From assembly GCA_026770705.1 (NCBI GenBank), contig JANJGN010000014.1, positions 125,364,001-125,428,000 on the forward strand: 64,000 nucleotides of DNA. Direction: 5' to 3'. This stretch comes from Isurus oxyrinchus (lineage: Eukaryota). Within the stretch, counting starts at the first letter, position 1. Each line of letters opens with the position of its first letter. Position numbers and translations under genes: made by a program. The notes beneath the pieces were generated by a model, which worked only from the letters and a program-made list of their open reading frames with translations, was not told where the DNA came from and did not search any database. Positions 14,385 through 56,800 of this stretch are shown here, one piece after another.

Positions 14385-14640
14385 TACAATGCTTGCTAGG
14401 CCACATCAGAAAACAGCCAGCAGGAGTCAATTATTTAGTGAGGGACTTGCGTCACATGTAGGCCAGGTTGGATAAAAATGGCAAGTTCCCTTCCTTAAAG
14501 AATATCAGTGAAACAGTTGATTCTTAAAATAATCTAGCGGTTTTTATGGTCACTTTTTCTTTTAATAGCAGCCCATAAATTGCCTTTTCATTGAATTCAA
14601 TTTTGCAACTCATCATGGATAGAATTGAGCTACAACATTA
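14385..14640 (-). mobile_element. Degraded stand-alone copy of the family-A LINE 5' head (SINE-like)
   Basis: gcttgctaggccac...gtcacatgtaggccagg...ccttccttaaagaatatcagtgaaacag aligns with 25750-25990. Confidence 0.65.
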
Positions 14641-22580: not shown

Positions 22581-25425
22581 GATGGTGCTGAGGGAAGGAA
22601 AGGCCTAGAGCTGGAAATACCTCTGAAATTTAAAGATTTTACAAAAATCTGAAATACCCACCAAATATATGTGAATTAACTTCACTAATTTATTATGGAG
22701 GAGGGCTATCACCAGTAAGTTATCCCTTATTTTAAAAGGCAGAGGTCATGGGTTGGAAAGCCCCTGGAAGTTGCACAAACCACCACCCCAAGTTCTCTGG
22801 ATTTTTAAAATTCTTAGGGCATGGATGTGGCTGGCTGGGCCAGCACTTTTACTGCCCATCCGTGATTGCCCTTGGTGAGCAGCCTTCTTGAACTGCAGGT
22901 GGTGCAGGTAGACCCGCAGTGCTATTAGTAGGAAGTTCCAGGATTTTGACCCAGCAACAGTGAAGGTACAGTGATACAGTTCCAAGCCAGGATGGTTTGC
23001 AACTTGGAAGGGAACTTGCAGGTGGTGATGTTCCCAAGTATTTGCTGCCCTTGTCCTCCTTGGTGGTACAGCTCACGAATTAGGATGTGCTGTCAAAGGT
23101 ACCTCGGTGATTTGCTGCAGTGTATATTGTAGATCGTACACGTTGTTACAGTGCATCGGTGGTGGAGGGAGTGGATGTTGAAGGTGGTGGATGGGTTGCC
23201 AATCAAACAGGCTGCTATGTCCTAAATGATGTCGAGCTTCCTGGGTGTTATTGGAGCTGCACTCATCCAGGCAAGTGGAGAGTGTTCCATCACACTCCTG
23301 ACTTGTACCTTGTAAATGTTAGACAGGCTTTGGGGAGTCAGGAGGCGAATTATTCGCCACAGGATTCCTAGCCTCTGACCTGCTTTTGTAGCCATGGTAT
23401 TTACACGGCTCGTCCAGTTCAGTATCTGATCAATGGTAACCCCCAGAATTTTGATAGTGGGGAATTCAGCAATGGTAATGCCATTGATTATCAAGGGGAA
23501 ATGACTGGATTCTCTCTTGCTGGAGATGGTCATTGCCTGGTACTTGTGTGGCATGAATGTTACTTGCCACTTGTCAGCCCAAGCCTGAATGTTATCCAGG
23601 TCTTGCTGAATATGGGCATGGACTGCTTCAGCATGTGAGGAATTGCAAATGGTGCAGAATATTGTACAATCAGCAGCAAACAGCCCCACTTTTGATCTTT
23701 TGATAGAGGGAAGGTCATTGATGAAGCAGCTGAAGATGGTTGCGCCTAGAGCACTACCCTGAGGAGTACCTGCAGTGATGTCCTGGGACTGAGATGATTA
23801 ACCTCCAACCACAACCATCTTGCTTTGAGCTAGGTATGACTCCAACCAGCAGAGAGTTTTCACCGCACCACCCCAATTCCCACTGACTTCAGTTTTGCTA
23901 GGTGTCCTTGATGGCACACTCGGTCAAATGTTGCCTGATGTCAAGGGCAGTCACTCTCACCTCATCTGTGAAGCTCAGCTCTTTTGCTCTTGTTTGGACT
24001 AAGACCAAATGTAACGAGGTCAGGGGTTGTGTGGCCCTGGTGGAACCCAAACTGAGCATCAGTGAGCAGGTTATTGCTATGTACCACTTGATAGTACTCT
24101 TGATGATCACTTGCAACACTTTGCTGATGGAGTGTAGACTGACGAAGTTGTAATTGGCCAGGTGGTATTTGTCCTGCTTTTTGTGGACAGGACATACTGG
24201 GCAGTTTTCCACATTGCTGGACAGGTGCCAGTGTTGTAGCTGTACTGGAACAGCTTGGCTAACAGCATAGTTAGTTCAGGAGCAGATGTCTTCAGTACTG
24301 TTGCTGGAATGTGTCAGGTCCTACAGCCTTTGCAGTGTCACGAGGAGTGGATCGGATTGGCTGAAGACTGGCATCTGTGGCGTTGGTGGGATCATCCACT
24401 CAGTACTTCTGGGTGAGGATGGCTGCACATGCTTCAGCCTTGTTTTTTGCAATGATGTGCTTGGCTCCCCCATCATTGAGGACGGGGATATTTGTGGAAC
24501 CACCTCCTCCAGTGAGTTAATTGTCCACCACCATTCATGACTGGATGTGGCAGGACTGCAGAGCTTATGGTGCTTTTGATGTTTGTCATGTAAGTAGTCC
24601 TGTGTTATAGATTTACCAGGTTGACACCTCAGTTTTAGGTATGCCTGCTGCTGCTCGTGACATGCCCTCCTGCACTCTTCATTGAACCAGGGTTGATCTG
24701 TCAGCTTGATGGTAATGGTAGGGTGGTGAATTTGCAAATTGTGGTTGCATACAATTCTGCTGCTGATGGCCCACAGCACTTCATGCATCCCCAGTTTTTA
24801 GTTGCTAGATCAGTTCGAAATCTAACCCATCAGCACAGTGGTAGTGCCACACAACACGATGGAAGGTATCCACAATGTGAAGACGGGACTTTGCCTCCAC
24901 AAGATGGTCATTCCTACCAATATTGTCATGCACAGATGCATCCTTGATAGGTGGGCTGGTGAGGACGAGGTCAAGTGGATTTCTCCCTCTTGTTAGTTCT
25001 GTCACCACCTGCCACAGACACAGGTTAGCAGCCATATCCATTTGGACTCAGCCAGCTCTGTCAGTGGTGGTGCTACCGAGCCACTCTTAGTGATGGACAT
25101 TGAAGGTCCCCACCCAGAAGACATTCTGTGCCCTAGCCATCTTCAGTACTTCTTCCAAGTAGTGTTCAACATGGAGGAGTACCGATTCATCAGCTGAAGG
25201 GGAAGACGGTAGGTGGTAAATCAGCAGGAAATTTCCTTGCCCATGACTGATCTGATGCCAGTAGAATTCATGGGGTTCAGAGTCAATGTTGAGAACTCCC
25301 AGGACAAGTCCCTCCCGACTGTATACCACTGTGCCACTGTGTCGATGGGACAGGACATACCCAGGATGGTGATGGTGGTGTCTGGTGGTGTCCGCAGGGT
25401 ACGATTCTGTAAGTATGACTGTCAG

Positions 25426-25564
25426 TCTGCTCTGAAGAATCATATGGACTCGAAACGTTAATTCTGTTTTTCTCTTCACAGATGCTGTTAGACTGCTGAG
25501 TTTTTTCAGCATTTTCTGTTTTTGTTTCAGATTTTAAGCATCCACAGTATTTTGCTTTTGTCTT
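25426..25564 (+). mobile_element. Short Penelope 3' element with canonical hammerhead core
   Basis: CTGAAGA...ggactcGAAAcgtt followed by gatgctg...gctgagtttttt...ttttgcttttgtctt. 8-bp TSD actgtcag (25418-25425, 25565-25572). Confidence 0.85.
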
Positions 25565-26025
25565 ACTGTCAGGTTATTGCCTTACTAGTCTGTAGGACAG
25601 CTCTCAAAATTTTGGCACAAGCCCCCAGATGTTAGTGAGGAGGACTTTACAAGGTCGACAGGGCTGGGCTTGCCGTTGTCATTTCCAGTGCCAAGGTGGA
25701 TGCTGAGTGATCCATCCAGTTTCATTTGTTTTTGCAAAATTACAACCGAGTGGCTTCTTGGGCCATTTGAGGGCTTATAAAAGTCAACCACATTGCTGTG
25801 GGTCTGCAGTCACATGTAGGTCAGGCCAAGTAAGAATGGCAGATTTCCTTTCCCAAAAGGACATTAGTGAACCAGATGGGTTTTTACGACAATTGACAAT
25901 GGTTCATGGTTACTATTACCAAAACTATTTTTTTTTAACTCCAAATTTATTAACTGAAGTTAAATTCCACCAGCTGCCATGGTGGGGTTTGAACCCATGT
26001 CTCCGGAGCATTAGCCTCGGCCTCA

Positions 26026-26346
26026 TTGTACGTGAATCCAGAGCTAGGGGGCACTGTTTTAAAATTAAGGGTCACCCTTGAAGGACAGAGATGAGGAGAA
26101 AATTTTTCTCTCAGAGGGTTGTGTGAGTTTGGAATTCTCTGCCTCAGAAGATGGTGGAGGCGAGGTCATTGAATATTTTTAAGGAAAAGGTAGAATAGAT
26201 TGTTGTTAGGCAAGGGAATCCAAGGTTATCGGGGATAAATGGGAATGTGGAATTTGGAACGCAAGCAGATCAGCCATGACCTTACTGAATGGCGGAGCAG
26301 GCTCAAGGGGCCGAACGGTCTACTCCTGTTCCTATTTCTTATGTTC
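26026..26346 (+). mobile_element. CR1 3' end inserted into the family-A head
   Basis: ESRARGHCFKIKGHP...FFSQRVV..WNSLP and tail ggccgaacggtctactcctgttcctatttcttatgttct. Confidence 0.9.
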
Positions 26347-26873
26347 TCTGAATTACTAGCCTGGTGCTATTATCAGTACTAACAAAGGATTGTGTTGCAC
26401 TTGATTTCACCATCCCAATCCCATTAATAAAAATGAAACAAAGCAATATCTATGTTACTGTTGCTTTCAGTTCCTTTTACGTCACACTGATTTATACCGA
26501 CAAAACTGACATGGTTTGTCGTGGCAAGACTCCCACTGAATTCCATGTCATTATACAAAACAAATTTAACACTGAAATCAAGTCCTAGTCTCTAGCATCC
26601 ATGCAATATTAAACTTCCTGCACTTCCAATGCACCCACTTCTCATAAGCTTCATAAAGAATTCAATCTTACCAACACAAACAAAAGTGAGACTATCCTTA
26701 AAAAGCCAGCTACATATTCCATAAATTTCAACTCATTGAAAACTCTGCTGCCCGTACCCTATTTTTGCCACTTTTGCCTGCCAAAGTAAAGGTACACTTT
26801 GGAAGGAGTAATTTGACAACGGAGTATTCAATGAGCAAATAGGAAGTTCTGAGGAACAAAGGGAATGTTGATG

Positions 26874-29815: not shown

Positions 29816-30971
29816 TTTTTTCCTTATGCTCTCTCTCATCTACATTCTTCCAAAAGTCAAGACAACAAGCATTTAGCCTGTTCTCAACAATGTTGCTCTA
29901 CAGCTAGGAGGTATAAAGGCCAGAGTATCAATTTCCCTCTGCTTTTTGTTTCTTTTTTTCCCCAGTGACAATTTATCAGGTGAGAAACTACATTGGCAGT
30001 GGTTCACGCAAGTACAATCACCTTCCACTTTTACATTTCCATGCTATACAAGGCACATTATATGAACTATTAAAAGCTTGTGAATAATGTTCAAAACAAG
30101 GATCGAATTATCTGCTTTAATAAAAATTCAGACTTAAACAAGGGTTCAGCATTAAATCCTCTTTTAAATATAGCATGGAAAGCTTAACACAATCCTATCT
30201 CAGCAGTTCTCTTACCTCTTGCAAACCTTCAGAAAATTCCTTTTTAAAATCACCTACGGCAAGTATTTTTATAAAAAAACTCATCAAGGTGAAGGATCAG
30301 TGCTGGGGAAGAGGCATGCCAGGTGAACGACAGTGCAACCACACAAAGTTCACTCAACTTTGCTCCAACGATATGGTCGAATTTTGGTTTTAGAATGTTG
30401 CTGCTGCAAGTTACTTGGAATTAAATTGAGGGTCAATGCACAAAGAACCCTTAAAGACAGAAAATATGCTTGCATCCATTAACTCTGACTGTTTTAAACT
30501 CAGGTAAAACTTAAGAGGTGAATCTGCCATCCAATCTTCCAGAAATTCTTTTGCATATTCACAAGAAACCATTTTCCCTCTGCTTTCATCTGACCTATTG
30601 CCAATATCTATTGTGTCAATTCTACTTTCTGCTTCCACTCATAACAGTCCCTCACAAAAATCTTTGCGTTGTGCGTAAGGCAAGTCAGGTTTTCCTGGAA
30701 TTTAAAATTGCAATGATCAGGAGTTACAAATCTACATGCTGAACCTTATATTGGAAGCTTGTGAAGCATGAAGCAAATAAAAGTTAAAGTCACACTAACT
30801 ATACCAGAGTTGAAAACAAAGAAAACTGCGGATGCTGGAAATCTAAAACAAAAACAGAATTACCTGGAAAAACTCAGTAGGTCTGGCAGCATCGGCGGAG
30901 GAGAAAAGAGTTGACGTTTCGAGTCCTCATGACCCTTCGACAGAACTTGATTTCGAGTCCAGGAAAGAGTT

Positions 30972-32636
30972 TCCAGGACTGTCACTGACCTCATCTCCTC
31001 TGGGGATCTCCCTCCCACAGCTTCCAACCTGATAGTCGCCCAACCTCGGACGGCCCGCTTCTATCTCCTACCCAAAATCCACAAACAGAACTGCCCTGGT
31101 AGACCGATCGTCTCAGCTTGCTCCTGCCCCACAGAACTCATTTCTCGTTATCTTGACTCCCTTCTCTCTCCCCTTGTCCAGTCCCTTCCCACCTACATCC
31201 GTGATTCCTCTGACACCTTACGTCACATCAACAATTTCCAGTTCCCTGGCTCCAACCGCTTCCTCTTCACCATGGACGTCCAATCCCTCTACACCTCCAT
31301 CCCCCACCAGGATGGTCTGAGGGCCCTTAGCTTCTTCCTCGAACAGAGGCCCGAACAATCCCCATCCACCACTACTCTCCTCCGTCTGGCTGAACTTGTT
31401 CTCACGTTGAACAATTTCTCCTTCAACTCCTCTCACTTTCTCCAAATAAAAGGTGTGGCTATGGGTACCCGCATGGGCCCCAGCTATGCCTGTCTCTTTA
31501 TGGGATATGTGGAACATTCCTTGTTGCAGTCCTACCCCGGCCCCCTTCCACAACTTTTTCTCCGGTACATCGATGATTACTTCGGTGCTGCTTCATGCTC
31601 TCGTCGGGACTTGGAAAAATTTATTAATTTTGCTTCCAATCTCCACCCCTCCATCATTTTCACGTGGTCCATCTCTGACACTTCCCTTCCCTTCCTTGAC
31701 CTTTCTGTCTCAATCTCTGGTGATAGACTGTCCACCAATATCCACTACAAACCCACCGACTCCCACAGCTACCTCGACTACAGCTCCTCACACCCCGCTT
31801 CCTGTAAGGACTCCATCCCATTCTCCCAGTTCCTTCGCCTTCGTCGCATCTGTTCCGATGATGCTACCTTCAAAAACGGTTCCTCTGACATGTCCTCCTT
31901 CTTCCTTAACCGAGGTTTTCCACCCACGGTCGTTGACAGGGCCCTCAACCGTGTCCGGCCCATCTCCCGCGCATCCGCCCTCACGCCTTCTCCTCCCTCC
32001 CAGAAACATGATAGGGTCCCCCTTGTCCTCACTTATCACCCCACCAGCCTCCGCATTCAAAGGATCATCCTCCGCCATTTCCGCCAACTCCAGCATGATG
32101 CCACCACCAAACACATCTTCCCTTCACCCCCCTTATCGGCATTCCGTAGAGATCGCTCCCTCCGGGACACCCTGGTCCACTCCTCCATCACCCCCTACTC
32201 CTCAACCCCCTCCTATGGCACCACCCCATGCCCACGCAAAAGATGTAACACCTGCCCCTTCACTTCCTCTCTCCTCACCGTCCAAGGGCCCAAACATTCC
32301 TTTCAAGTGAAGCAGCATTTCACTTGCATTTCACCCAACTTAGTCTACTGCATTCGTTGCTCCCAATGTGGTCTCCTCTACATTGGAGAGACCAAACGTA
32401 AACTGGGCGACCGCTTTGCAGAACACCTGCGGTCTGTCCGCAAGAATGACCCAAACCTCCCTGTGGCTTGCCATTTTAACACTCCACCCTGCTCTCTTGC
32501 CCACATGTCTGTCCTTGGCTTACTGCATTGTTCCAGTGAAGCCCAACGCAAACTGGAGGAACAACACCTCATCTTCCGACTAGGCACCTTACAGCCTTCC
32601 GGTCTGAATATTGAATTCAATAACTTTAGGTCGTGA
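30972..32636 (+). CDS. Penelope RT + Cys-rich linker + GIY-YIG endonuclease (N-terminally truncated, stop-free)
   Basis: Frame is open from 30972: FYLLPKIHK..GRPIVS, MDVQSLYTSIP, KGVAMGTRMGPSYA, LRYIDD, LPFLD, CPRKRCNTC, LVYCIRC..C..LYIGETKR.L..RFAEH, terminal GLN. Confidence 0.93.
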   Translation, partial: SRTVTDLISSGDLPPTASNLIVAQPRTARFYLLPKIHKQNCPGRPIVSACSCPTELISRYLDSLLSPLVQSLPTYIRDSSDTLRHINNFQFPGSNRFLFTMDVQSLYTSIPHQDGLRALSFFLEQRPEQSPSTTTLLRLAELVLTLNNFSFNSSHFLQIKGVAMGTRMGPSYACLFMGYVEHSLLQSYPGPLPQLFLRYIDDYFGAASCSRRDLEKFINFASNLHPSIIFTWSISDTSLPFLDLSVSISGDRLSTNIHYKPTDSHSYLDYSSSHPASCKDSIPFSQFLRLRRICSDDATFKNGSSDMSSFFLNRGFPPTVVDRALNRVRPISRASALTPSPPSQKHDRVPLVLTYHPTSLRIQRIILRHFRQLQHDATTKHIFPSPPLSAFRRDRSLRDTLVHSSITPYSSTPSYGTTPCPRKRCNTCPFTSSLLTVQGPKHSFQVKQHFTCISPNLVYCIRCSQCGLLYIGETKRKLGDRFAEHLRSVRKNDPNLPVACHFNTPPCSLAHMSVLGLLHCSSEAQRKLEEQHLIFRLGTLQPSGLNIEFNNFRS

Positions 32637-33040: not shown

Positions 33041-33079
33041 AGTTCTGTCGAAGGGTCATGAGGACTCGAAACGTCAACT
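33041..33079 (+). ncRNA. Minimal type I hammerhead-ribozyme-like motif with variant core
   Basis: AGTT-CTGTCGA-A-GGGTC-atgag-GACTC-GAAA-CG-TC-AACT: stem I AGTT/AACT, stem II GGGTC/GACTC, palindromic ACGT at helix III. Copies on the minus strand at 30909-30947, 37671-37709, 54018-54056, 61348-61386. Confidence 0.75.
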
Positions 33080-35367
33080 CTTTTCTCCTCCGCCGATGCT
33101 GCCAGACCTACTGAGTTTTTCCAGGTAATTCTGTTTTTGTTTCTAACTATACCAGCCTTGGGCAGACACCACAATTTTTATTTTCAGCACTGTGCTTTCC
33201 CTGACCCCCTTCTGATTTCCAATCATTTGGACAAGAGGAGGAAAAGAGGAAGATGGGTAAAGAAATCCATTAGTGTGCAATTTGTACAATGTTTTAAGGG
33301 AGTCACACCATATACAAATATAAAAATAAGTTAAAGTCTGAAATTGCTGCCCCGATTCAAAATACATCAATGACATTTTAATGCAGGAAACAAAAGATCC
33401 GATATTTTTCATGATCTAATCAAGGTCAACAGCAAAAAAAATCAATCACTGCAAAAAGCAACACATAGAAAGTCAACAAGAAATATTAGGACAATTACCA
33501 TCTCTAGTCTTCCTAGCTACTCACTCTCCTACCTGGTTCAATTATATTCCTAAAAGCTTCAACCAGCCCCATTTCTACTGCGAGTCAAGTTTCACTCATC
33601 TCCATTACATCAGGCTGCAAATCTGCTTCTCTGCATTTCTCCTGCTCTCTTTCACCGGTCCTTTATCAGTGTTCAAAAAATAAATTTTCTAAAAACCACA
33701 GGCCTACTGCTGTGTAGGTTAGTTCTGCCTTTCATTCGTAAAAAGCACATCAATATTGTTCTTCCTCAATCTTTAACCTCACTTTCTCCCTTTCATTAAT
33801 ATCCACCCTCATCTCACTATTCCATTCAAAAGCACAATCCTTTTCATTCATACAATTCCAACTGCTCATGTTCCCTCTCAGCTTCAGTCCTTCCAAAGCT
33901 GTGGCTCCGACAGTACCCATGCACATTTAATCATACACCATCTCTGCTTTCCCTCTCTCTTCTCCCTGCAGGCTCTGACTGCAGCAATATTCTTGAATCA
34001 ATTGCAAGTATACCTCAGTTCATATGCTTCCAGTTTCTTTCCTTAGCTTTGCTCTATTGCAATGTTCTTGTTTGTACTATACATAAGCTGGCTCGCTCTC
34101 TGAATTGCACACAGCAACATCCCTCCTGTTACATATCCCTTCCCCCATGGCTCGGGTGTAGCTTTTTGCTCTCTGTACTAGCAATTTCTGCCAGTACGTC
34201 CCACTCTCATTCATACATTTCCAATCTCTTCCCTCCCTAATAATCTCACTGCTGCCATCAAAACCACCCTGCCAAATACAGCCTCTACATCACTGTCCTT
34301 AATGTTGTTATAGATTTTAAAATGCTGAAATTTTCTTGTTTCCTGCTCCACACACTGACTTTACTGCGCCAGTTTCTCTGCTGTTGATATAGCCACCACA
34401 TCACCTAAGCTTTCATTCATCCATTCCAGAATTACTGCTGCACGTTCTCCACTTCGATGATGTCACTAAGATGTTCAATTATCTCATGCACTTATTTCCA
34501 GCTTTATCGAGTTGTTTTAACAAACCATTTATTTCCCACAGTCTTCTCTTCTACAACCAATGTCATAATACATCACCATTCTTTTTCATACCTACACAGT
34601 TGCTATCCAGTACATGTTACAGGTTCTATAGCACACTGCAGGTCTTTTCCAACTGCACCACCCTCCCACTATCCTGTTGGTAGCCAAGTGTCAATCAGAT
34701 ACATCATTTTTACATTTTCCTCCCCAATTTTACATCACTCATTGGAAAAATTGCATTTCAACATTACATTCCTCCCCCCATCCCCCCCCCCCCCCCCCCA
34801 ATCATAACCTGTGCTATCCTCCACTGCACCACTGCTGTGAATAGTATCAACATGATCTCATTCACTGATTTTGTATTCCAGTCTTCAATTCTCTCCCTGG
34901 ACTAACAATACTGCAACATGTTCAATACTACACACGTTCTGAACATGTGAAAAAAAAACATAAAACGCACGCGTTTTTTTTAAAGAAGATTTAATAGCAA
35001 ACCTGATCCATTATCTCCATACTGCATCATTAACACTTTACAGTGGTTGCAATGTATACCATTTCTCCCTTTAATTGCGAAGCACGTCTCGGCTGGTGAC
35101 ACAGTCAGTAACTCACTCACTCGCTTGCTCTCTCCCCACTAAGCATGCAGTTAAATTGCCAGGAAGGTTGCACTCTTGTACTCCTCCAGCAACTGCTCCC
35201 CGCCCCCACCCGGACCCGTGCAGCGCCCGCACACTACCCGCCCCCCACCCCGCCTCGAGCCCCGCGGGTTCACCGGATTGCGCCGCTCGCGCTTCTACCC
35301 CCCTCCACCCCCGGGGCCGTTGGGCTGAGGAAACCGCCACCGCCGCTTGCTCCCCCATTCCGGATAC

Positions 35368-35945: not shown

Positions 35946-36484
35946 AGCCTCGTCAGGCGCCGCGGTCTTTCCCATGGACCCGGCTTTTCAGGCTGTCGTT
36001 ATCCAACAGACATAGCGTGCTCAGCGCTGCCCGTTCTCCAGACGCCAGACAGCTAAACCGAGGCTGCGGTGCCGGCGGGCTGAGGGGGTAGGGGGTGGTG
36101 GAGGGGGGGGGGGGGGGTGGGTTTGAGTGTAAGCACGTGATCTCCATTTGCAGCCACGTGGTGGCAATGAGATGCAGGATCACGGAAGTGTCACAGCACC
36201 GAAGGGTCTGCACCAACTCTCCCAATGAACAATTCACCTAGTGCCATTACCCTGCCTCCTCGCTGTAACCCCTGCATATTCTTCCTATTCAGATAATCCA
36301 ATTCCCCCTTGTATGGCCCAGCTGAAACCATTGTCAATTGTCACCAACAGGACAGACCCAGCAGAGGTGGTATACAGTTGGGAGGCAGTTACCCTGGGAG
36401 TCCTCAACAGCGACTCTGGATCCCACGAAGTTTTATTGTATCGGGCCCAAACACACACCCTCAGTACTCCTCCATGTTGTACAT

Positions 36485-37397
36485 TAGAGTCATAGAGTTA
36501 TTCAACACAGAAATGGTGCCATTGTGCCCAAACTGGCCATCAAGCACCTATCCTAATCCCATTTTCCAGCACTTGGCCCGTAGCCCTGTATGCTATGGCG
36601 TTTCACGTGCTCATCTGAATACTTCTTAAATGCCCTGCCTCTACCACCCCCTCAGGCAGTGTGTTCCATATCCCAACCACCCTCTGGGTGAAAAAAAATT
36701 TCCTTAAATCGCCTCTAAACCTCCTGCTCCTTACCTTAAATCTATGCCGCATGGTTATTGACGCCTCGGCTAAGGGAAAAGTTTCTTCCCACCTACCCTA
36801 TCTATGCCCCTCATAATTTTGTATACCTCTATCAGGTCCCCCTCAGCATTCTCTGTTCTAAGGAAAACAACCCTAGCCTATCCAGTTCCTCTTTATAGCT
36901 GAAACGTTCCAGCCCAGGCAACATCCTGGTGAATCTCCTCTGTACCCTCTCCATTGCAATCATGTCCTCCTTCTAATATGGCGACCAAAACTGCATACAG
37001 TATTCCAGCTGTGGCCTAACTAGTGTTTTATACAGCTCCAACATAACTCCCTGCTCTTACATTCTAAGATAAAAGCAAAATACTGCGAATGCTGGAAATC
37101 TGATGAGTCATGCAGATCGAAACATTAACTCTGACTTCCTCTCCACAGATACTGTCAGACCTGCTGAGTTTTTCCAGCAATTTTTGTTTTTGTTTCTGCT
37201 CTTATATTCTATTTCCCAGCCAATAAAGGCAAATATCCCATATACCTTCTTAACTATCTTATCTACATGTGCTGCTGCCTTTAGGGATCTATGGACATGT
37301 ACACCAAGGTCCCTCTGATCCTCTCTACTTCCTAGGGTCCTACCATCCATTATGCATTCCTTTATTATGTTAGTCCTCCCAAAATGCATCACCTCAC
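36485..37397 (-). mobile_element. CR1 3' portion nested in the family-A LINE
   Basis: MHFGRTN...DQRDLGVHVHRSLK..HVDKIVKK.YG..AFI and a CR1 3' tail at 36485. Confidence 0.9.
37066..37195 (+). mobile_element. Short Penelope element: inverted extreme tail + hammerhead-containing segment
   Basis: 15-bp TSD ctgctctta(c/t)attct (37051-37065, 37196-37210). aagataaaagcaaaatactgcgaatgctggaaat is inverted, followed by ctgatgagtc...gaaac...tttttgttt. Confidence 0.85.
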
Positions 37398-37606
37398 ACG
37401 TCTTTGTTCAGAATGTACTCTGAGTGGGGAACTTCAATGGATTCGACCAGACTGGGTCTGCGGCAGGTCGTCAGGGAACCAAGAAGAGAGCAAACCATAT
37501 TTGGCCTCAAGCTCACAAGCCTGCCTGCCGCGGATGCTGCAGGAGTGACCACCTCACGGTGATGGAAATGAAATCCCATCTTCACATTGAGGATACCTGA
37601 CATCAT

Positions 37607-37728
37607 AAAACAAAAACAGAATTACCTGGAAAAACTCAGCAGGTCTGGCAGCATCGGCGGAGAAGAAAAGAGTTGACGTTTCGAGTCCTCATGACCCTTC
37701 GACAGAACTATACCTTTTATACCTTTTT
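37607..37728 (-). mobile_element. Short young Penelope element (hammerhead + 3' end)
   Basis: 14-bp TSD atacctgacatcat (37593-37606, 37729-37742). 37607-37709 is identical to 61284-61386. Confidence 0.92.
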
Positions 37729-38452
37729 ATACCTGACATCATGTTGTGTGGCACTACCACCATGCTTTGTGATTTCGAAAAGACCTAGCAACTCAAGACT
37801 GGACAACGATGAGGCACTGTGGGCCATCAGCAGCAGCAGCAGAATTGTACTCAACCACAACCTGTAACCTCATGGCCTGGCATATTCCCCACTATACCAT
37901 TCTACCATTACCACTAAGCCAGGGGATCAACCCTCGTTTAATAAAGAGTGCAGGAGGACATGCCAGGAGCGCACCAGGCATACCTAAAAATTAGGTGTTA
38001 ACCTGGTGAAGCTACAACACAGGACCACTTGCATTCCAAACAGTATAAGCAACAAGCGAGTTGCTAGTGATTCCACAACCAATGATCAAGCCTAAGCTCT
38101 GCAGTCCTGCCACATCCAGTCGTGAATGGTGGTGGACAATCAAACAACTCACTGGAGGAGGAGGAGAACACTCCATAAATATCCCCACCCTCAATGATGG
38201 GGCAGCCCAGCACATCAGTGCAAAACATGAGGCTGAAGTATTTGCAACAATCTTCAGCCAGAAGTGCCGAGTGGATGATCCATCTAATTGTCTTCCAGAG
38301 GTCCCCAGCATCACACATGCCAGTCTTCAGCCAATTCAATTCACTCCACATGATATCAAGTTATGGCTGAATGCACTGGATACTGCAAAGGCGATGGGCC
38401 CTGACAACAGTCCAGCAAGAGTACTGAAGACTTGTGGTCCAGAACTTGCTGC

Positions 38453-38850
38453 TGCCATGACTCACTGGGGATAATGCACTGTAATATCAAGCTCCACTAT
38501 TCCCCAAGCCATGACAAGTGAAAAATTTTGATCAAATCATCATATTTCCCCAATTCTACCTAACTGTTTAATCTGGGTTAACAAAATATGAGTACCAGGT
38601 TTATAAACTTAACAAGTAAATAACTGTTTATCGAACAAACTGTTGTTAATCAGTGGAAAAAGAAATAAATATGAACTGCTAATTTCTAAGTCTATAACCT
38701 AAACTCTACCCCTTCTTAAATCCCTATATACACACATATAAGACACACAAAAACATGGATTTGAAGGGTGGGATAAAATAGTTCAATAGCACCAATTCCG
38801 GAGTAGAGGATTCGATGTGTTGATTTTGATGGATGTCTTCCAAAATTCGC
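38453..38850. mobile_element. Partial LTR-like insertion inside the family-A LINE
   Basis: AT-rich non-LINE block beginning tgccatga...tgcactgta, similar in its start to the solo-LTR candidate at 58.0 kb. No second end or TSD seen. Confidence 0.35.
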
Positions 38851-39768
38851 TTAGTTTGGGTTCTGCCAGAATCACTATTTCCGGACCTCAGACAGCCTTG
38901 GTTCAAACATGGACAAAACAGCTAAATTCCAGAGATGAGGTGAGAGCGATTGTCCTTGACATCAAGGCAGTATTTGACTAAGTATGGCATCAAGGAGCCC
39001 TAGCAAAATTGTAGTCAATCAGAATCGGGGAAAACTGTCAGCTGGTTGGAGTCATACCTATCACAAAGGAAGATGGTTGTGGTTGTTGGAAGTCAATCAT
39101 CTCAGCTCCAGGATATCATTGCATGAGTTCCTCAGGTAGCGTCCTAGGCCCAACCATCTTCAACTGTTTCTTCAATGACCTGCATCACAAGGTCAGAAGT
39201 AGGGATGTTCGCTGATGGTTGCATGATGCTCAGCACCATTAGCGACTCCTCAGATAGTGAAGCAGTCCATTTCTAAATGCAGCAAGACCTGGACAATATC
39301 CAGGCTTTGGCTGATAAGTGGCAAGTAGCGTTTGCGCCTCTCTAGTGCCAGGCAATGACCATCTCTAACAAGAGAGAATCTAACCATCACCCCTTGATGT
39401 TCAATGGCACTACCATTCACTGAATTCCCTATGATCAACCAGAAAGGAACCGGACTGGCCATATAAATACTGTGGCTGCAAGAGCAGGTCAGAAGCCAAG
39501 AATCCTGCAGCGAGTAACTCACCACTGACTCCCCAAAGCCTGTCCACTATCTACAAGCCATGACTCAGGAGTGTGATGGAATATTCCCCACTTGCCTGAA
39601 TGAGTGCAGCTCCAACAACACTTAAGAAGCTTGACATCATCCAGGACAAAGCAGCTCACTTGATTGGCACCCCATTGACAAACATTCACTCCCTCCACCA
39701 CTGATGCACAGTGGCAGCAGTGTGTACCATCTACAAGATGCACTGCAAGAACTCACCAAGATTCCTTA

Positions 39769-40157
39769 GACATAAGACCATAAGCCATAGGGCAGAAGTA
39801 GGCCACTCATCCATCAAGTCTGCTCCGCCATTCAATGAGATCATGGCTGATCTGATAATCCTCAACTCCACTTTCCTGGCTTTTTCCCATAGCCCTTGAT
39901 TCATTTACTGATTAAAAATCTGTCTATCTTAGCCTTGAATGTACTTAATGACCCAACCTCTACAGCTCTCTGCGGGAAAGAATTCCACAGATTCATTACC
40001 CTTTGAGGGAGGAAATTCCTCCTTATATCTGTCTTAAATGGGTGACCCCTTACTCTGAGATTATGGCCTCTGGTCCTAGACTCTCCCACAAGGGGAAACA
40101 GCCTCTCAGCATCTACCCTGTCAAGGCCCCTAAGAATCTTATATGTTTCAATAAGGT
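39769..40157 (-). mobile_element. CR1 3' end nested in the family-A LINE
   Basis: NLIETYKILRGLDRVDAERLFPLVGESRTRGHNLRVRGHPFKT..RRNF.PQRVMNLWNS. Confidence 0.92.
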
Positions 40158-40450
40158 TGACACACATTTCAAACCCACAACCACTACCATCTAGAAGGAC
40201 AAGGGCAGCAGACACATGGGAACACCACAATCATCTGGAAATTCCCCTCTAAGACTCTCACCACACTAACTTGGAAATATATCACCATTCCTTCACTTTC
40301 GCTGGGTCAAAATACTGCAATTCGCTTCCTAACAGCACTGTTGGTGTACCTACAACACAAAGACTGCAGCAATTGAAGAAGGCAGCTCCCCATCACCTAC
40401 TCACAGGCCTAGCCAGCAATGCCAACATCCCATGAATGAATAAAAAAAAC

Positions 40451-53864: not shown

Positions 53865-56800
53865 TAACACTCCACAGCCCAGTTTTGTGTTGTCAGCACA
53901 CTTGGAAATATTGCACTAAGATAAAAGCAAAAAACTGCGGATGCTGGAAATCCAAAACAAAAACAAAAATACCTGGAAAAACTCAGCAGGTCTGGCAGCA
54001 TCTGCGGAGAGGAACACAGTTAACGTTTCGAGTCCTTATGACTCTTCAACAGAACTAAGGAAATATAGAAAAGAGGTGAAATATAAGCTGGTTTAAGGAG
54101 GGGGGTGGGACAGGTAGAGCCGGATAGAGGGCCAGTGGAGATAACCAAAAGATGTCACAGACAAAAGAACAAAGTGGTGTTGAAGCTGGTGATATTATCT
54201 AAGGAATGTGATAATAAAGGTACAGATAGCCCTAGTGGGGGTGGGGTGGGGGGAAGGGATCGAAATAGGCTAAAAGGCAGAGATAAAACAATGGGTGGAA
54301 ATACATTTAAAAATAATGGAAATAGGTGGGAAAAATAATCTATATAAATTATTGGAAAAAAGGGGGATCGGAAAGGGAGTGGAAATGGAGGAGAGAGTTC
54401 ATGATCTAAATTTGTTGAACTCAATATTCGGTCCGGAAGGCTGCAAAGTGCCTAGTTGAAAGATGAGGTGCTGTTCCTCCAGTTTGCGTTGAGCTTCACT
54501 GGAATAATGCAGCAGGCCAAGGACAGACATGTGGGCAAGAGAGCAGGGTGGAGTGTTGAAATGGCAAGCGACAGGGAGGTCTGGGTCATGCTTGCATTTG
54601 GTTTCCTCGTCCAAGTCATTTATATATATTGTGAAAAGCTGAGGCCTAAGAACTGATCCCTGTAGTACACCGCTAGTCACTGCCAGCCATCTGGAAAAAG
54701 ACCTATTTATTCCCACACACTGTTTCTGGTCTTTGCTAATCTTTATCTCTTCGCATAGTTATAGAAACTTTTACAGTCAGTTTTTATGTTCCCTGCAAGA
54801 ATACTCTCATACTCCATTTTCTCCTTCTTGATCAATCTTTTTGTCCACTTTTGTTTAATTCTAAACTGCTCCCAATCCTCAGGCTTGCTGCTTTTTCTGG
54901 CAATTTTATATGTCTTTTTTTTGGATCTAATACTATACTTAATTGCTTTTGTAATCCATGGTTGAGCCACCTTTCCTGTTTTATTTTTGCATCAGACAGG
55001 AATGAACAATTGTTGTAATTCATGCATACGTTCCTTAAATATCAGTCATTGCCAATCTACCATCAACCCTTTTAGTAAGGTTCTCCAATCCGTCATTGCC
55101 AACTTACGCCTCATACCCTCGTAGTTCCCTTTAGTTAGATTTAGGACCCTAATTTCGGATTCAACTTCTTCACTCTCCATCTTAATGAACAATTCTACCA
55201 TTTTATGGTCGCTCTTCCCCAAGGGACACCACACAAAAAGATTGTTAATTAATCCTTTCTCATTGCACAATACCAAGTTTAGAACAACCTGCTCTCTTAT
55301 TCGTCTAAAAAACCATCACGTACACACTCCAGAAAATCCTCCTCCACAGTATTATTGCAAGTTTGGTTTGACCAATCTATATGTAGATTAAAGTCATCCA
55401 TGATCACAGTTGTACCCTTACTGCATGCATCTCTAATTTCCTGTTTAATGCCTTCCCTTACAACTCCGGTATTGTTTGGGGGCCTTTGGGCAACACCGAC
55501 CAACATTTTCTGTCCCTTTGGGTTTCTAATCTCCACCCAGACAGATTCCACATCATGATTTTCTGAGTTAATATCCTTCCTCACTATTGCATTGATTTCT
55601 TCCTTTACTAACAGTGCTACCCCACTCCTTCCCCTATTTTTCTGTGCCTTCCTAAATATTGAATACCCCTGGATGTTTAGTTCCCATCCTTGGTCACCCT
55701 ACAGCAATGTCTCTGTAATTGCAACTATATCATAGCTGTTTATATCTATTTGCACTGTTAATTCACCTACCCTATTGCAAATGCTCCGCGCATTAAGATA
55801 CAATGCCTTAATATTTGTCTTTTTAACTTTGTTAGTCATCTTAGCTTTATTTTGCTCTATGATCCCATTTGTTTATCATCCTTGTTTTTTCTGCCTTCCA
55901 CTTTTGCTTCTTATTTTTCTGTCTTTCATTTTTATCTTTGTTTCCCCCTCCTCTGTCTCCCTGCTCAAGTTCCCATCCCCCTGTAATTCGTTTAAACCCT
56001 CCCGACAGCACTAGCAAACACCCCCCCCCCCCCCCACCCACTCCCTCGTCACCCTCAAGGACATTGGTCCGGTCCTGCCCAGATGTAACCTGTCCTGTTT
56101 GTACTGGTCGCACCTTCCCCAGCTTCCCTAGAACGGGTCCCAATGTCCCAGGAATCTGAATCTGTCCCCTCTACAATATTTCTTCAGCCCCGTATTCATC
56201 CAATATATCCTGTTATTTCTGCTCTTGCTAGCACGTGGTGCTGGTAGTAATCCTGAGATTACTACCTTTGAGGTCCTACTATTCAATTTATGTCCTAACT
56301 GCCTATATTCAGCTTGTAGGACCTCATCCCCTTTTTTCCCTATGTCGTTGGTACCAACATATACCATGTCCACTAGCTGTTCACCCTCCCCCTTCAGAAT
56401 GCCCTGCAGCCTCTCCGAGACATCCTCAACCCTGGCACCAGGGAGGCAACATACCATCTTGGAGTCTCTTTTGCGGCTGCAGAAGTGCCTGTCTGTACCC
56501 CTTACTATTGAATCCCTCACCACTATAGCCCTGCCACTCTTCTTCCTCCCCTCTTGTGCAGCAGAGCCACCCATGGTGCCATGGACTTGGCTCCTATTGC
56601 TTTCCCCTGAGAAGTCACCTCCCCCACAGTATCCAAAATGGTTTATCTGTTGGAGAGGGGACAGCCAGAGTGGACTCCTGGCACTACCTGCCTCCCTCAA
56701 CTCTGTCTGGTGGTCACCCATCCTCTTTCTGCCTCTTCAGTCTTTACCTGCAGTGTGACTACCTCACTGAACGTCCTGTCCATGACAATCTGAGCATCAC

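Follow-up and report, generated by a model that had tools for sequence, protein, structure and literature searches.

A tRNA-like head at the 5' end of elasmobranch Zenon LINEs, read from a decayed copy in Isurus oxyrinchus

Introduction

Zenon elements are long interspersed elements (LINEs) that have been reported from five elasmobranchs, coelacanth, and hagfish, and the elasmobranch ones are, by the available text of that report, held in no repeat repository (PMC13343379). Here we analyzed one such element in a 64,000-nucleotide (nt) stretch of the Isurus oxyrinchus genome (assembly GCA_026770705.1, contig JANJGN010000014.1, positions 125,364,001 to 125,428,000; hereafter the window), where it occupies positions 22802 to 26389 of the minus strand and begins with a tRNA-like sequence, the head. 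The same available text states that the first open reading frame (ORF1) is universally missing from Zenons, that they carry a poly-A tail, that the whole element is >84% alike between species, and that elasmobranch Zenons make up 3.2%, 4.4%, and 6.8% of three shark genomes. The elasmobranch consensuses were seeded on the reverse transcriptase (RT), extended, and curated by hand (PMC13343379, in the part available). The Bombyx element CR1B is described with the same layout, likewise without ORF1 (PMC1925062, available text).

Several described systems share part of this architecture. Lepidopteran Zenon (CR1B) and its SIDE derivative Persaeus are alike in the single ORF, the ~300 bp 5' untranslated region (UTR), the poly-A tail, and the internally deleted derivatives (PMC1925062, PMC6740152, in the parts available). 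Unlike elasmobranch Zenon, however, Persaeus, which carries the Zenon 5' UTR, is reported there to lack tRNA homology and an RNA polymerase III (Pol III) promoter (PMC6740152). Short interspersed elements (SINEs) are defined as short (<700 bp) and non-coding (PMC3531059, available text), and the bipartite SINEs Bov-tA, CoeSINE4, SINE2_Gav, and SINE2-1_EC likewise join a tRNA head to the 5' UTR of a LINE, but are short and non-coding (Kojima 2018, PMC5786205, available text). The Zenon head, on the other hand, stands on a whole coding element. HE1 and HER1 are tRNA-headed repeats of cartilaginous fish. So are SacSINE1 and the CmiSINEs, which are set apart by their description (Deu/CORE bodies, L2 tails, non-coding; PMC5499810, available text). 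Cassandra, Helenus, and Ajax (TRIMp3) are non-SINE retroelements with a small-RNA Pol III promoter, but they are non-autonomous long terminal repeat elements of at most 1263 bp that encode no protein (PMC10886601, available text). A possible precedent are RTE-1_DAn and elements related to it, LINEs said, in the part of the source available, to contain a tRNA-like sequence, which belong to a different clade (RTE; Drosophila by name).

In the available text of PMC13343379 the terms tRNA, SINE head, promoter, polymerase, and Pol III do not occur in this sense, so that the head is in its data, unremarked. A whale shark preprint names CR1-Zenon and, in its available part, leaves tRNA unmentioned. 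In the literature covered, most subscription papers and Repbase aside, we found no account of a Zenon head or of an autonomous LINE driven by Pol III. In what follows, we describe the copy, its head, and the evidence on the polymerase that transcribes the family.

Identification of the element

On sequence grounds we identify the focal LINE as an elasmobranch Zenon, a single-ORF endonuclease-RT element. The first 400 nt of the elasmobranch consensuses in the available supplement of PMC13343379, compared by eye and with no computed identity, are collinear with positions 26389 to 25645 of the window. The copy is ~3120 bp long net of insertions, lies on the minus strand in the order head, body, endonuclease, RT, and tail, and is missing ~127 bp that are present in another window copy. 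The same 5' 400 nt (by eye), single frame, absence of ORF1, A-tail, and length of ~3.3 kb characterize the published elasmobranch LINEs (CarCar, RhiTyp, ScyCan, and HypSab Zenon-1; SquAca Zenon-1, Zenon-2, and Zenon-3; PMC13343379, in the part available). Among the best 150 of 30,373 hits, the nearest full-length proteins were single endonuclease-RT frames of 935-983 amino acids (aa), 36-42% identical over the RT piece and without PHD or RNase H domains. A quick tree of 89 rows, which included no named Zenon reference, placed the focal element in a clade of 37 rows (support 99), apart from the LINEs that bear PHD or RNase H.

The focal LINE has the single APE-RT frame, the poly-A tail, and the lack of ORF1 by which Zenons are recognized. 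The earlier note on this DNA had considered the missing ORF1 unusual; it is indeed missing, as is already known of all Zenons. Canonical vertebrate CR1 elements are recognized by an esterase ORF1, or descent from elements with one, and by a microsatellite tail, whereas the focal LINE has no ORF1 and ends in an A-tail. At ~3.3 kb and with endonuclease and RT, it is neither short (<700 bp) nor non-coding as a SINE2 would be, and the retained endonuclease and RT separate it from SIDEs, bipartite non-autonomous LINEs whose coding middle is deleted. An identity as Ingi, Vingi, RTE, or HER1-type CR1 was rejected, given the domains, the tail, and the consensus match.

The family is abundant. Eight further pieces of the LINE body occur in the window at 69-83% identity, and no bin between 22781 and 26448, the body-endonuclease linker among them, lacks contigs in any of the four public runs (three organisms). 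At position 25669, a differing letter was present in 120, 119, 36, and 20 contigs of the four runs. The coverage and the variant contigs in all four runs thus mark the family as a high-copy repeat.

A tRNA-like head at the 5' end of the family

The seven elasmobranch Zenon consensuses derive from four sharks and one ray (one each for white shark, whale shark, catshark, and stingray, and three for dogfish). As read in their first 400 nt, all of them have an A-box-like motif 5-10 nt after their start. No such 5' start was found in the first 400 nt of the three hagfish and coelacanth consensuses. Because the head opens seven of seven elasmobranch consensuses and none of these three, it is the 5' end of the elasmobranch family itself and not an adjacent SINE. 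By eye, a D-arm, a 5-bp stem carrying a 7-nt anticodon-like loop, and a T-arm that holds a B box can be made out in all seven and in none of the three; the D-stem of each of the five "-1" consensuses is short. In the stingray and dogfish-3 consensuses the endonuclease motif is reached within the 400 nt.

At the focal locus the same order is found in a further genome. The 5' half of the head (26346-26389, minus strand) matches the start of the seven consensuses by eye and holds a degenerate A box, a D-arm remnant, and the anticodon-like arm. It is followed by a CR1 3'-end insertion (26025-26345, plus strand; 66-70% identity with the window's remaining CR1 ends), which is later than the LINE and splits the head, and then by the 3' half (25960-26024, minus strand), with a second arm and the T-arm, again matched by eye to the consensuses. 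Once the CR1 piece is set aside, the two halves adjoin each other, by eye, along the consensus. The B-box match GGTTCAAACCC lies at 25995-25985 (minus strand), 340 bp upstream of the VLLTNIWGL start at 25645, and a 14-mer derived from the consensuses matches 26346-26359 with one mismatch (two window matches at up to two mismatches, against 0.41 expected). Between head and endonuclease lies the 5' untranslated body with a basic linker (25646-25959, minus strand), which is collinear with the consensuses and present in many contigs from all four runs; this interval contains no minus-strand ORF of at least 100 aa and no A-tail. The spacing of B box and endonuclease, the remainder of the head beyond the CR1 insertion, and the lack of room for ORF1 or of a tail between head and ORF were all reported in the earlier note and agree with these positions.

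The anticodon-like arm appears, by eye, to be tandem-duplicated (26346-26359 and 26000-26024), clearly so in dogfish, in diverged form in the other sharks and the focal copy, the duplication being largely absent in stingray. The duplication lengthens the spacing from A box to B box by ~20 nt (by eye).

Chance neighbours, either an independent SINE beside a 5'-truncated LINE or a CR1 piece and a LINE inserted together into an older head, could in principle give a similar picture. The B-box match by itself is at chance level (one in the window, 0.76 expected), and a 12-mer with one mismatch at 26354 and 22803 can be read as a target duplication. However, the left 12-mer and the CR1 tail repeat overlap. 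In addition, the consensuses run from head through body to endonuclease start in the order of the focal copy, where neither a tail nor a junction intervenes; this consensus match largely refutes the arrangement, which we regard as very improbable. No convincing target-site duplication was found around the whole focal element, and the 12-mer pair (26354-26343 at the junction of head and CR1, 22803-22792 behind the A-tail, minus strand) is probably due to chance.

It is also conceivable that the head belongs to an abundant bipartite SINE sharing the 5' UTR of the LINE, that consensus extension joined the two, and that the focal locus is a one-off SINE/LINE recombinant. Since the consensuses were seeded on RT and then extended and curated, extension into a SINE that shares the body is possible in principle. 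Bipartite SINEs are known for RTE and Vingi (Kojima 2018, PMC5786205, available text), one-off tRNA/L1 chimeras, mostly antisense halves, occur in human, and one multi-copy contig, described below, links the head body with the LINE's final 530 nt. Against this, the same 5' end was reached separately in five species, the top insertions span the entire consensus in three species, and the focal locus repeats the same order in one more genome. The longest genomic insertions, given against consensus length in a column that the available source leaves undefined, are 3299/3288, 3299/3293, and 3322/3314 in those three species, and 3220/3283 in catshark. We consider the recombinant explanation improbable, and it highly probable that the elasmobranch Zenon LINE itself begins with the head.

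That the head descends from a tRNA is a by-eye reading, clear in all seven consensuses. In the focal copy the A box is degenerate, and neither default ARAGORN nor Rfam reported a tRNA there. Relaxed ARAGORN, with the CR1 insertion left out, placed a tRNA exactly over both head halves (start 26389), but as a weak match: of 2000 random joins, 43 did as well, and 368 when a hit anywhere was counted. When the head pieces of this worn copy were folded, no cloverleaf formed.

Searches beyond the window were also made. A scan of viral contigs for close relatives left none of 11 candidate stretches confirmed, and a metagenome scan with the junction motif gave no matches. A profile scan yielded 80 distant LINE loci; ARAGORN found no tRNA in the 60 of them that were scanned, and none of the 74 loci examined had an upstream pair of A and B boxes at tRNA spacing. 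These loci say little about heads, because the upstream region is present in one of the six Zenon-like loci.

RNA polymerase and translation start

We propose that the tRNA-like head is the internal Pol III promoter for the whole 3.3-kb RNA, a reading to which we give an even chance. For Pol III to transcribe all of the element, T-runs have to be kept out of the sense strand, since the canonical terminator is a run of four or more T (PMC3141230, available text); the same logic has been applied elsewhere (PMC4494074, in the part available). Across 6714 nt, in seven pieces of window copies, a run of four or more T (T4+) occurs once where 8.4 would be expected (P 0.004), a figure that overstates the depletion because the copies overlap and are not independent; that single run is absent from the focal copy. 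In the majority sequence of the copies (1189 nt), runs of three or more T (T3+) number 2-4 against 8.0-9.3 expected (P 0.001-0.007). The corresponding ratio, 0.25-0.43, is below that of all 74 control LINE frames (0.73-1.46), which are the distant loci from the profile scan after six were dropped as short or containing N. All seven elasmobranch consensuses are, by eye, free of TTTT over their first 400 nt. The CR1 and Penelope elements of the same window show no T4 depletion, and neither do six Zenon-like control frames from metagenomes (T4 ratio 0.92-1.7). The codon context agrees: third-base T is rare where TTT would arise, at 1/19 to 3/23 versus 48/122 to 49/119 (P 0.002-0.007). Avoidance of T-runs as support for read-through by Pol III is new here and suggestive. 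Of all control LINE frames, that of locus L043 (5' end missing) alone has no T4 run, over 1813 nt with 1.8 expected, and it also ranks last of the loci in the codon test.

Several observations pull the other way. T4 depletion is non-significant both in the focal copy (0 versus 2.5 expected, P 0.054) and in the majority (0-1 versus 1.5-1.9 expected, P 0.2-0.39), and the 5' part of the focal copy has five T4 runs against 1.9 expected, which are absent by eye from the published consensuses. Without CpG-forming sites the codon test weakens to P 0.04-0.12, a CR1 ORF1 piece of the window has a similar ratio in it (0.27 on 10 sites), and T content is higher in most control frames than in the Zenon frame. 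Pol III elements are described as limited to ~700-1300 bp (PMC10886601, PMC3531059, available texts). AATAAA overlaps the A-tail in two of the five tails read, which fits polyadenylation by RNA polymerase II (Pol II). Finally, no in-frame AUG precedes the endonuclease in the focal copy or in the stingray consensus.

A serious possibility is the same architecture with a coding RNA made by Pol II, the head being a vestige, part of a Pol II internal promoter, or the driver of short Pol III RNAs only. LINEs are described as Pol II-transcribed (PMC3531059, PMC10886601, available texts), a capped RNA removes the translation problem, AATAAA stands at some tails, and the T-run avoidance reaches only moderate significance. 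Selection need not lie behind the conserved boxes, because the whole element is so alike between species. On the other hand, both boxes are kept although the spacer between them varies by ~20 nt between species (by eye), and the T3+ depletion is stronger than in any control.

Regarding translation, six of the seven consensuses have an AUG ~80 nt upstream of the endonuclease. In the focal copy it is at 25725, where it opens a 46-codon out-of-frame upstream ORF (25585-25725, minus strand) that overlaps the endonuclease start. Over the same interval, the endonuclease frame has a basic, Arg-rich upstream extension without an AUG. A start by stop readthrough was also considered, in which translation would begin upstream of the linker at an AUG with a UAG one codon further on. 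It was rejected: among the five "-1" consensuses this AUG is, by eye, in frame in three but not in the other two.

Decay, derivatives, and neighbouring elements

The focal LINE is an old, dead, decayed full-length copy. Its endonuclease N-terminus (25565-25645, minus strand; VLLTNIWGL..., with a similar motif near the N-terminus of protein P0062) is cut off by a Penelope-end insertion of 139 bp (25426-25564, plus strand), later than the LINE and flanked by an 8-bp target duplication (25565-25572 and 25418-25425). The endonuclease is thus split by a second insertion, besides the CR1 insertion given in the earlier note. The decayed endonuclease-RT frame follows (22871-25425, minus strand), with an RT piece at 23222-23797 (Pfam RVT_1, E 2.3e-9) and tblastn matches in several frames to residues 74-883 of protein P0021. 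It is interrupted by stops and frameshifts, so the copy is not autonomous; of the autonomous SINE-headed LINE proposed in the earlier note, the head as real 5' end of an autonomous-type family stands, and the autonomy of this copy does not. The element closes with a short 3' UTR and an A-rich tail (22802-22870, minus strand). This tail recurs at six other window sites (E below 0.01), four of which end in A-runs, so that A-rich ends of the poly-A type are found in the focal LINE and four other window copies.

A separate copy of the head at 14385-14640 had also been claimed. An older piece is indeed there (14391-14558, minus strand, nhmmer E 2.5e-9; to ~14640 by eye), but most of it is body sequence from behind the head; it has, by eye, a worn remnant of the B box and lacks the A-box half, and no tail or endonuclease lies nearby. 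As it ends in a CR1 piece, which cuts it off, it cannot be called a SINE. Among the joints listed, a contig of run X5 with a depth of 1925 (other listed X5 contigs, 50-107) connects position 25783 in the body, across 36 intervening letters, with the final 530 nt of the LINE, which is a hint of internally deleted SINE-like forms. Internally deleted derivatives are known for lepidopteran Zenon, where the derivative is described as without tRNA homology (PMC6740152, available text). A difference in contig depth between head and endonuclease was dropped as evidence for SINE derivatives, as contig depth cannot rank parts and the divergence of the focal copy is uneven.

Elsewhere in the window, a second Zenon copy (36367-40436, plus strand) is fragmented by CR1 and Penelope pieces, and no head was found upstream of it. 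A Penelope-like element (30951-32636, plus strand) has an open 561-aa frame with RT and GIY-YIG and near-identical terminal repeats, with ends at ~30822-30938 and 33050-33143; its end pieces are inserted at several window sites, one of them inside the focal LINE. A canonical CR1 remnant (54399-56736, minus strand) comprises a GDSL-esterase-like ORF1 (56128-56736) and an endonuclease piece. The segment 35075-36100 is GC-rich with short repeats, like a CpG-island gene start on the minus strand, and the LINE may sit in an intron of that gene.

Discussion

The Zenon element and its missing ORF1 were known; what had apparently gone unremarked is the tRNA-like 5' head conserved across sharks and rays. 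Taken together, the architecture is well supported, and the sequence offers moderate, indirect evidence for read-through by Pol III. The head would have been gained before the shark-ray split, by template switching or recombination with a tRNA or SINE RNA. TFIIIC would bind the A and B boxes, and Pol III would read the T-run-poor body, past the encoded A-tail, to the next flanking T-run, as with Alu. The resulting RNA would be uncapped, and its protein might be started by non-AUG initiation, by re-initiation after the upstream ORF, or from a minority of Pol II transcripts. The protein would then bind the 3' tail and insert a copy by target-primed reverse transcription, as established for the class, through which each full-length copy would regain the internal promoter.

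A bolder version, which we hold tentatively and rate somewhat short of even, is that shark and ray Zenon is an autonomous coding retrotransposon transcribed end to end by Pol III from a captured tRNA promoter. T-run terminators would have been purged from its 2.8-kb frame, its uncapped RNA would be translated without an in-frame AUG, and in this manner it would have reached 3-7% of the genome. It may also be the direct parent of SINEs with a tRNA head, formed through loss of its interior, in which case SINEs would be born in the opposite of the usual order.

By definition, LINEs are coding and transcribed by Pol II, SINEs non-coding and transcribed by Pol III, and elasmobranch Zenon joins a head resembling a tRNA promoter to a full endonuclease-RT frame. 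For repeat annotation, this means that 5' ends of elasmobranch Zenon may be labelled as SINEs or tRNA pseudogenes. For the biology of the family, it makes testable whether a retrotransposon protein can be produced through Pol III in vertebrates, how an uncapped RNA would be translated, and whether SINEs may originate through deletion of the middle of such a LINE.

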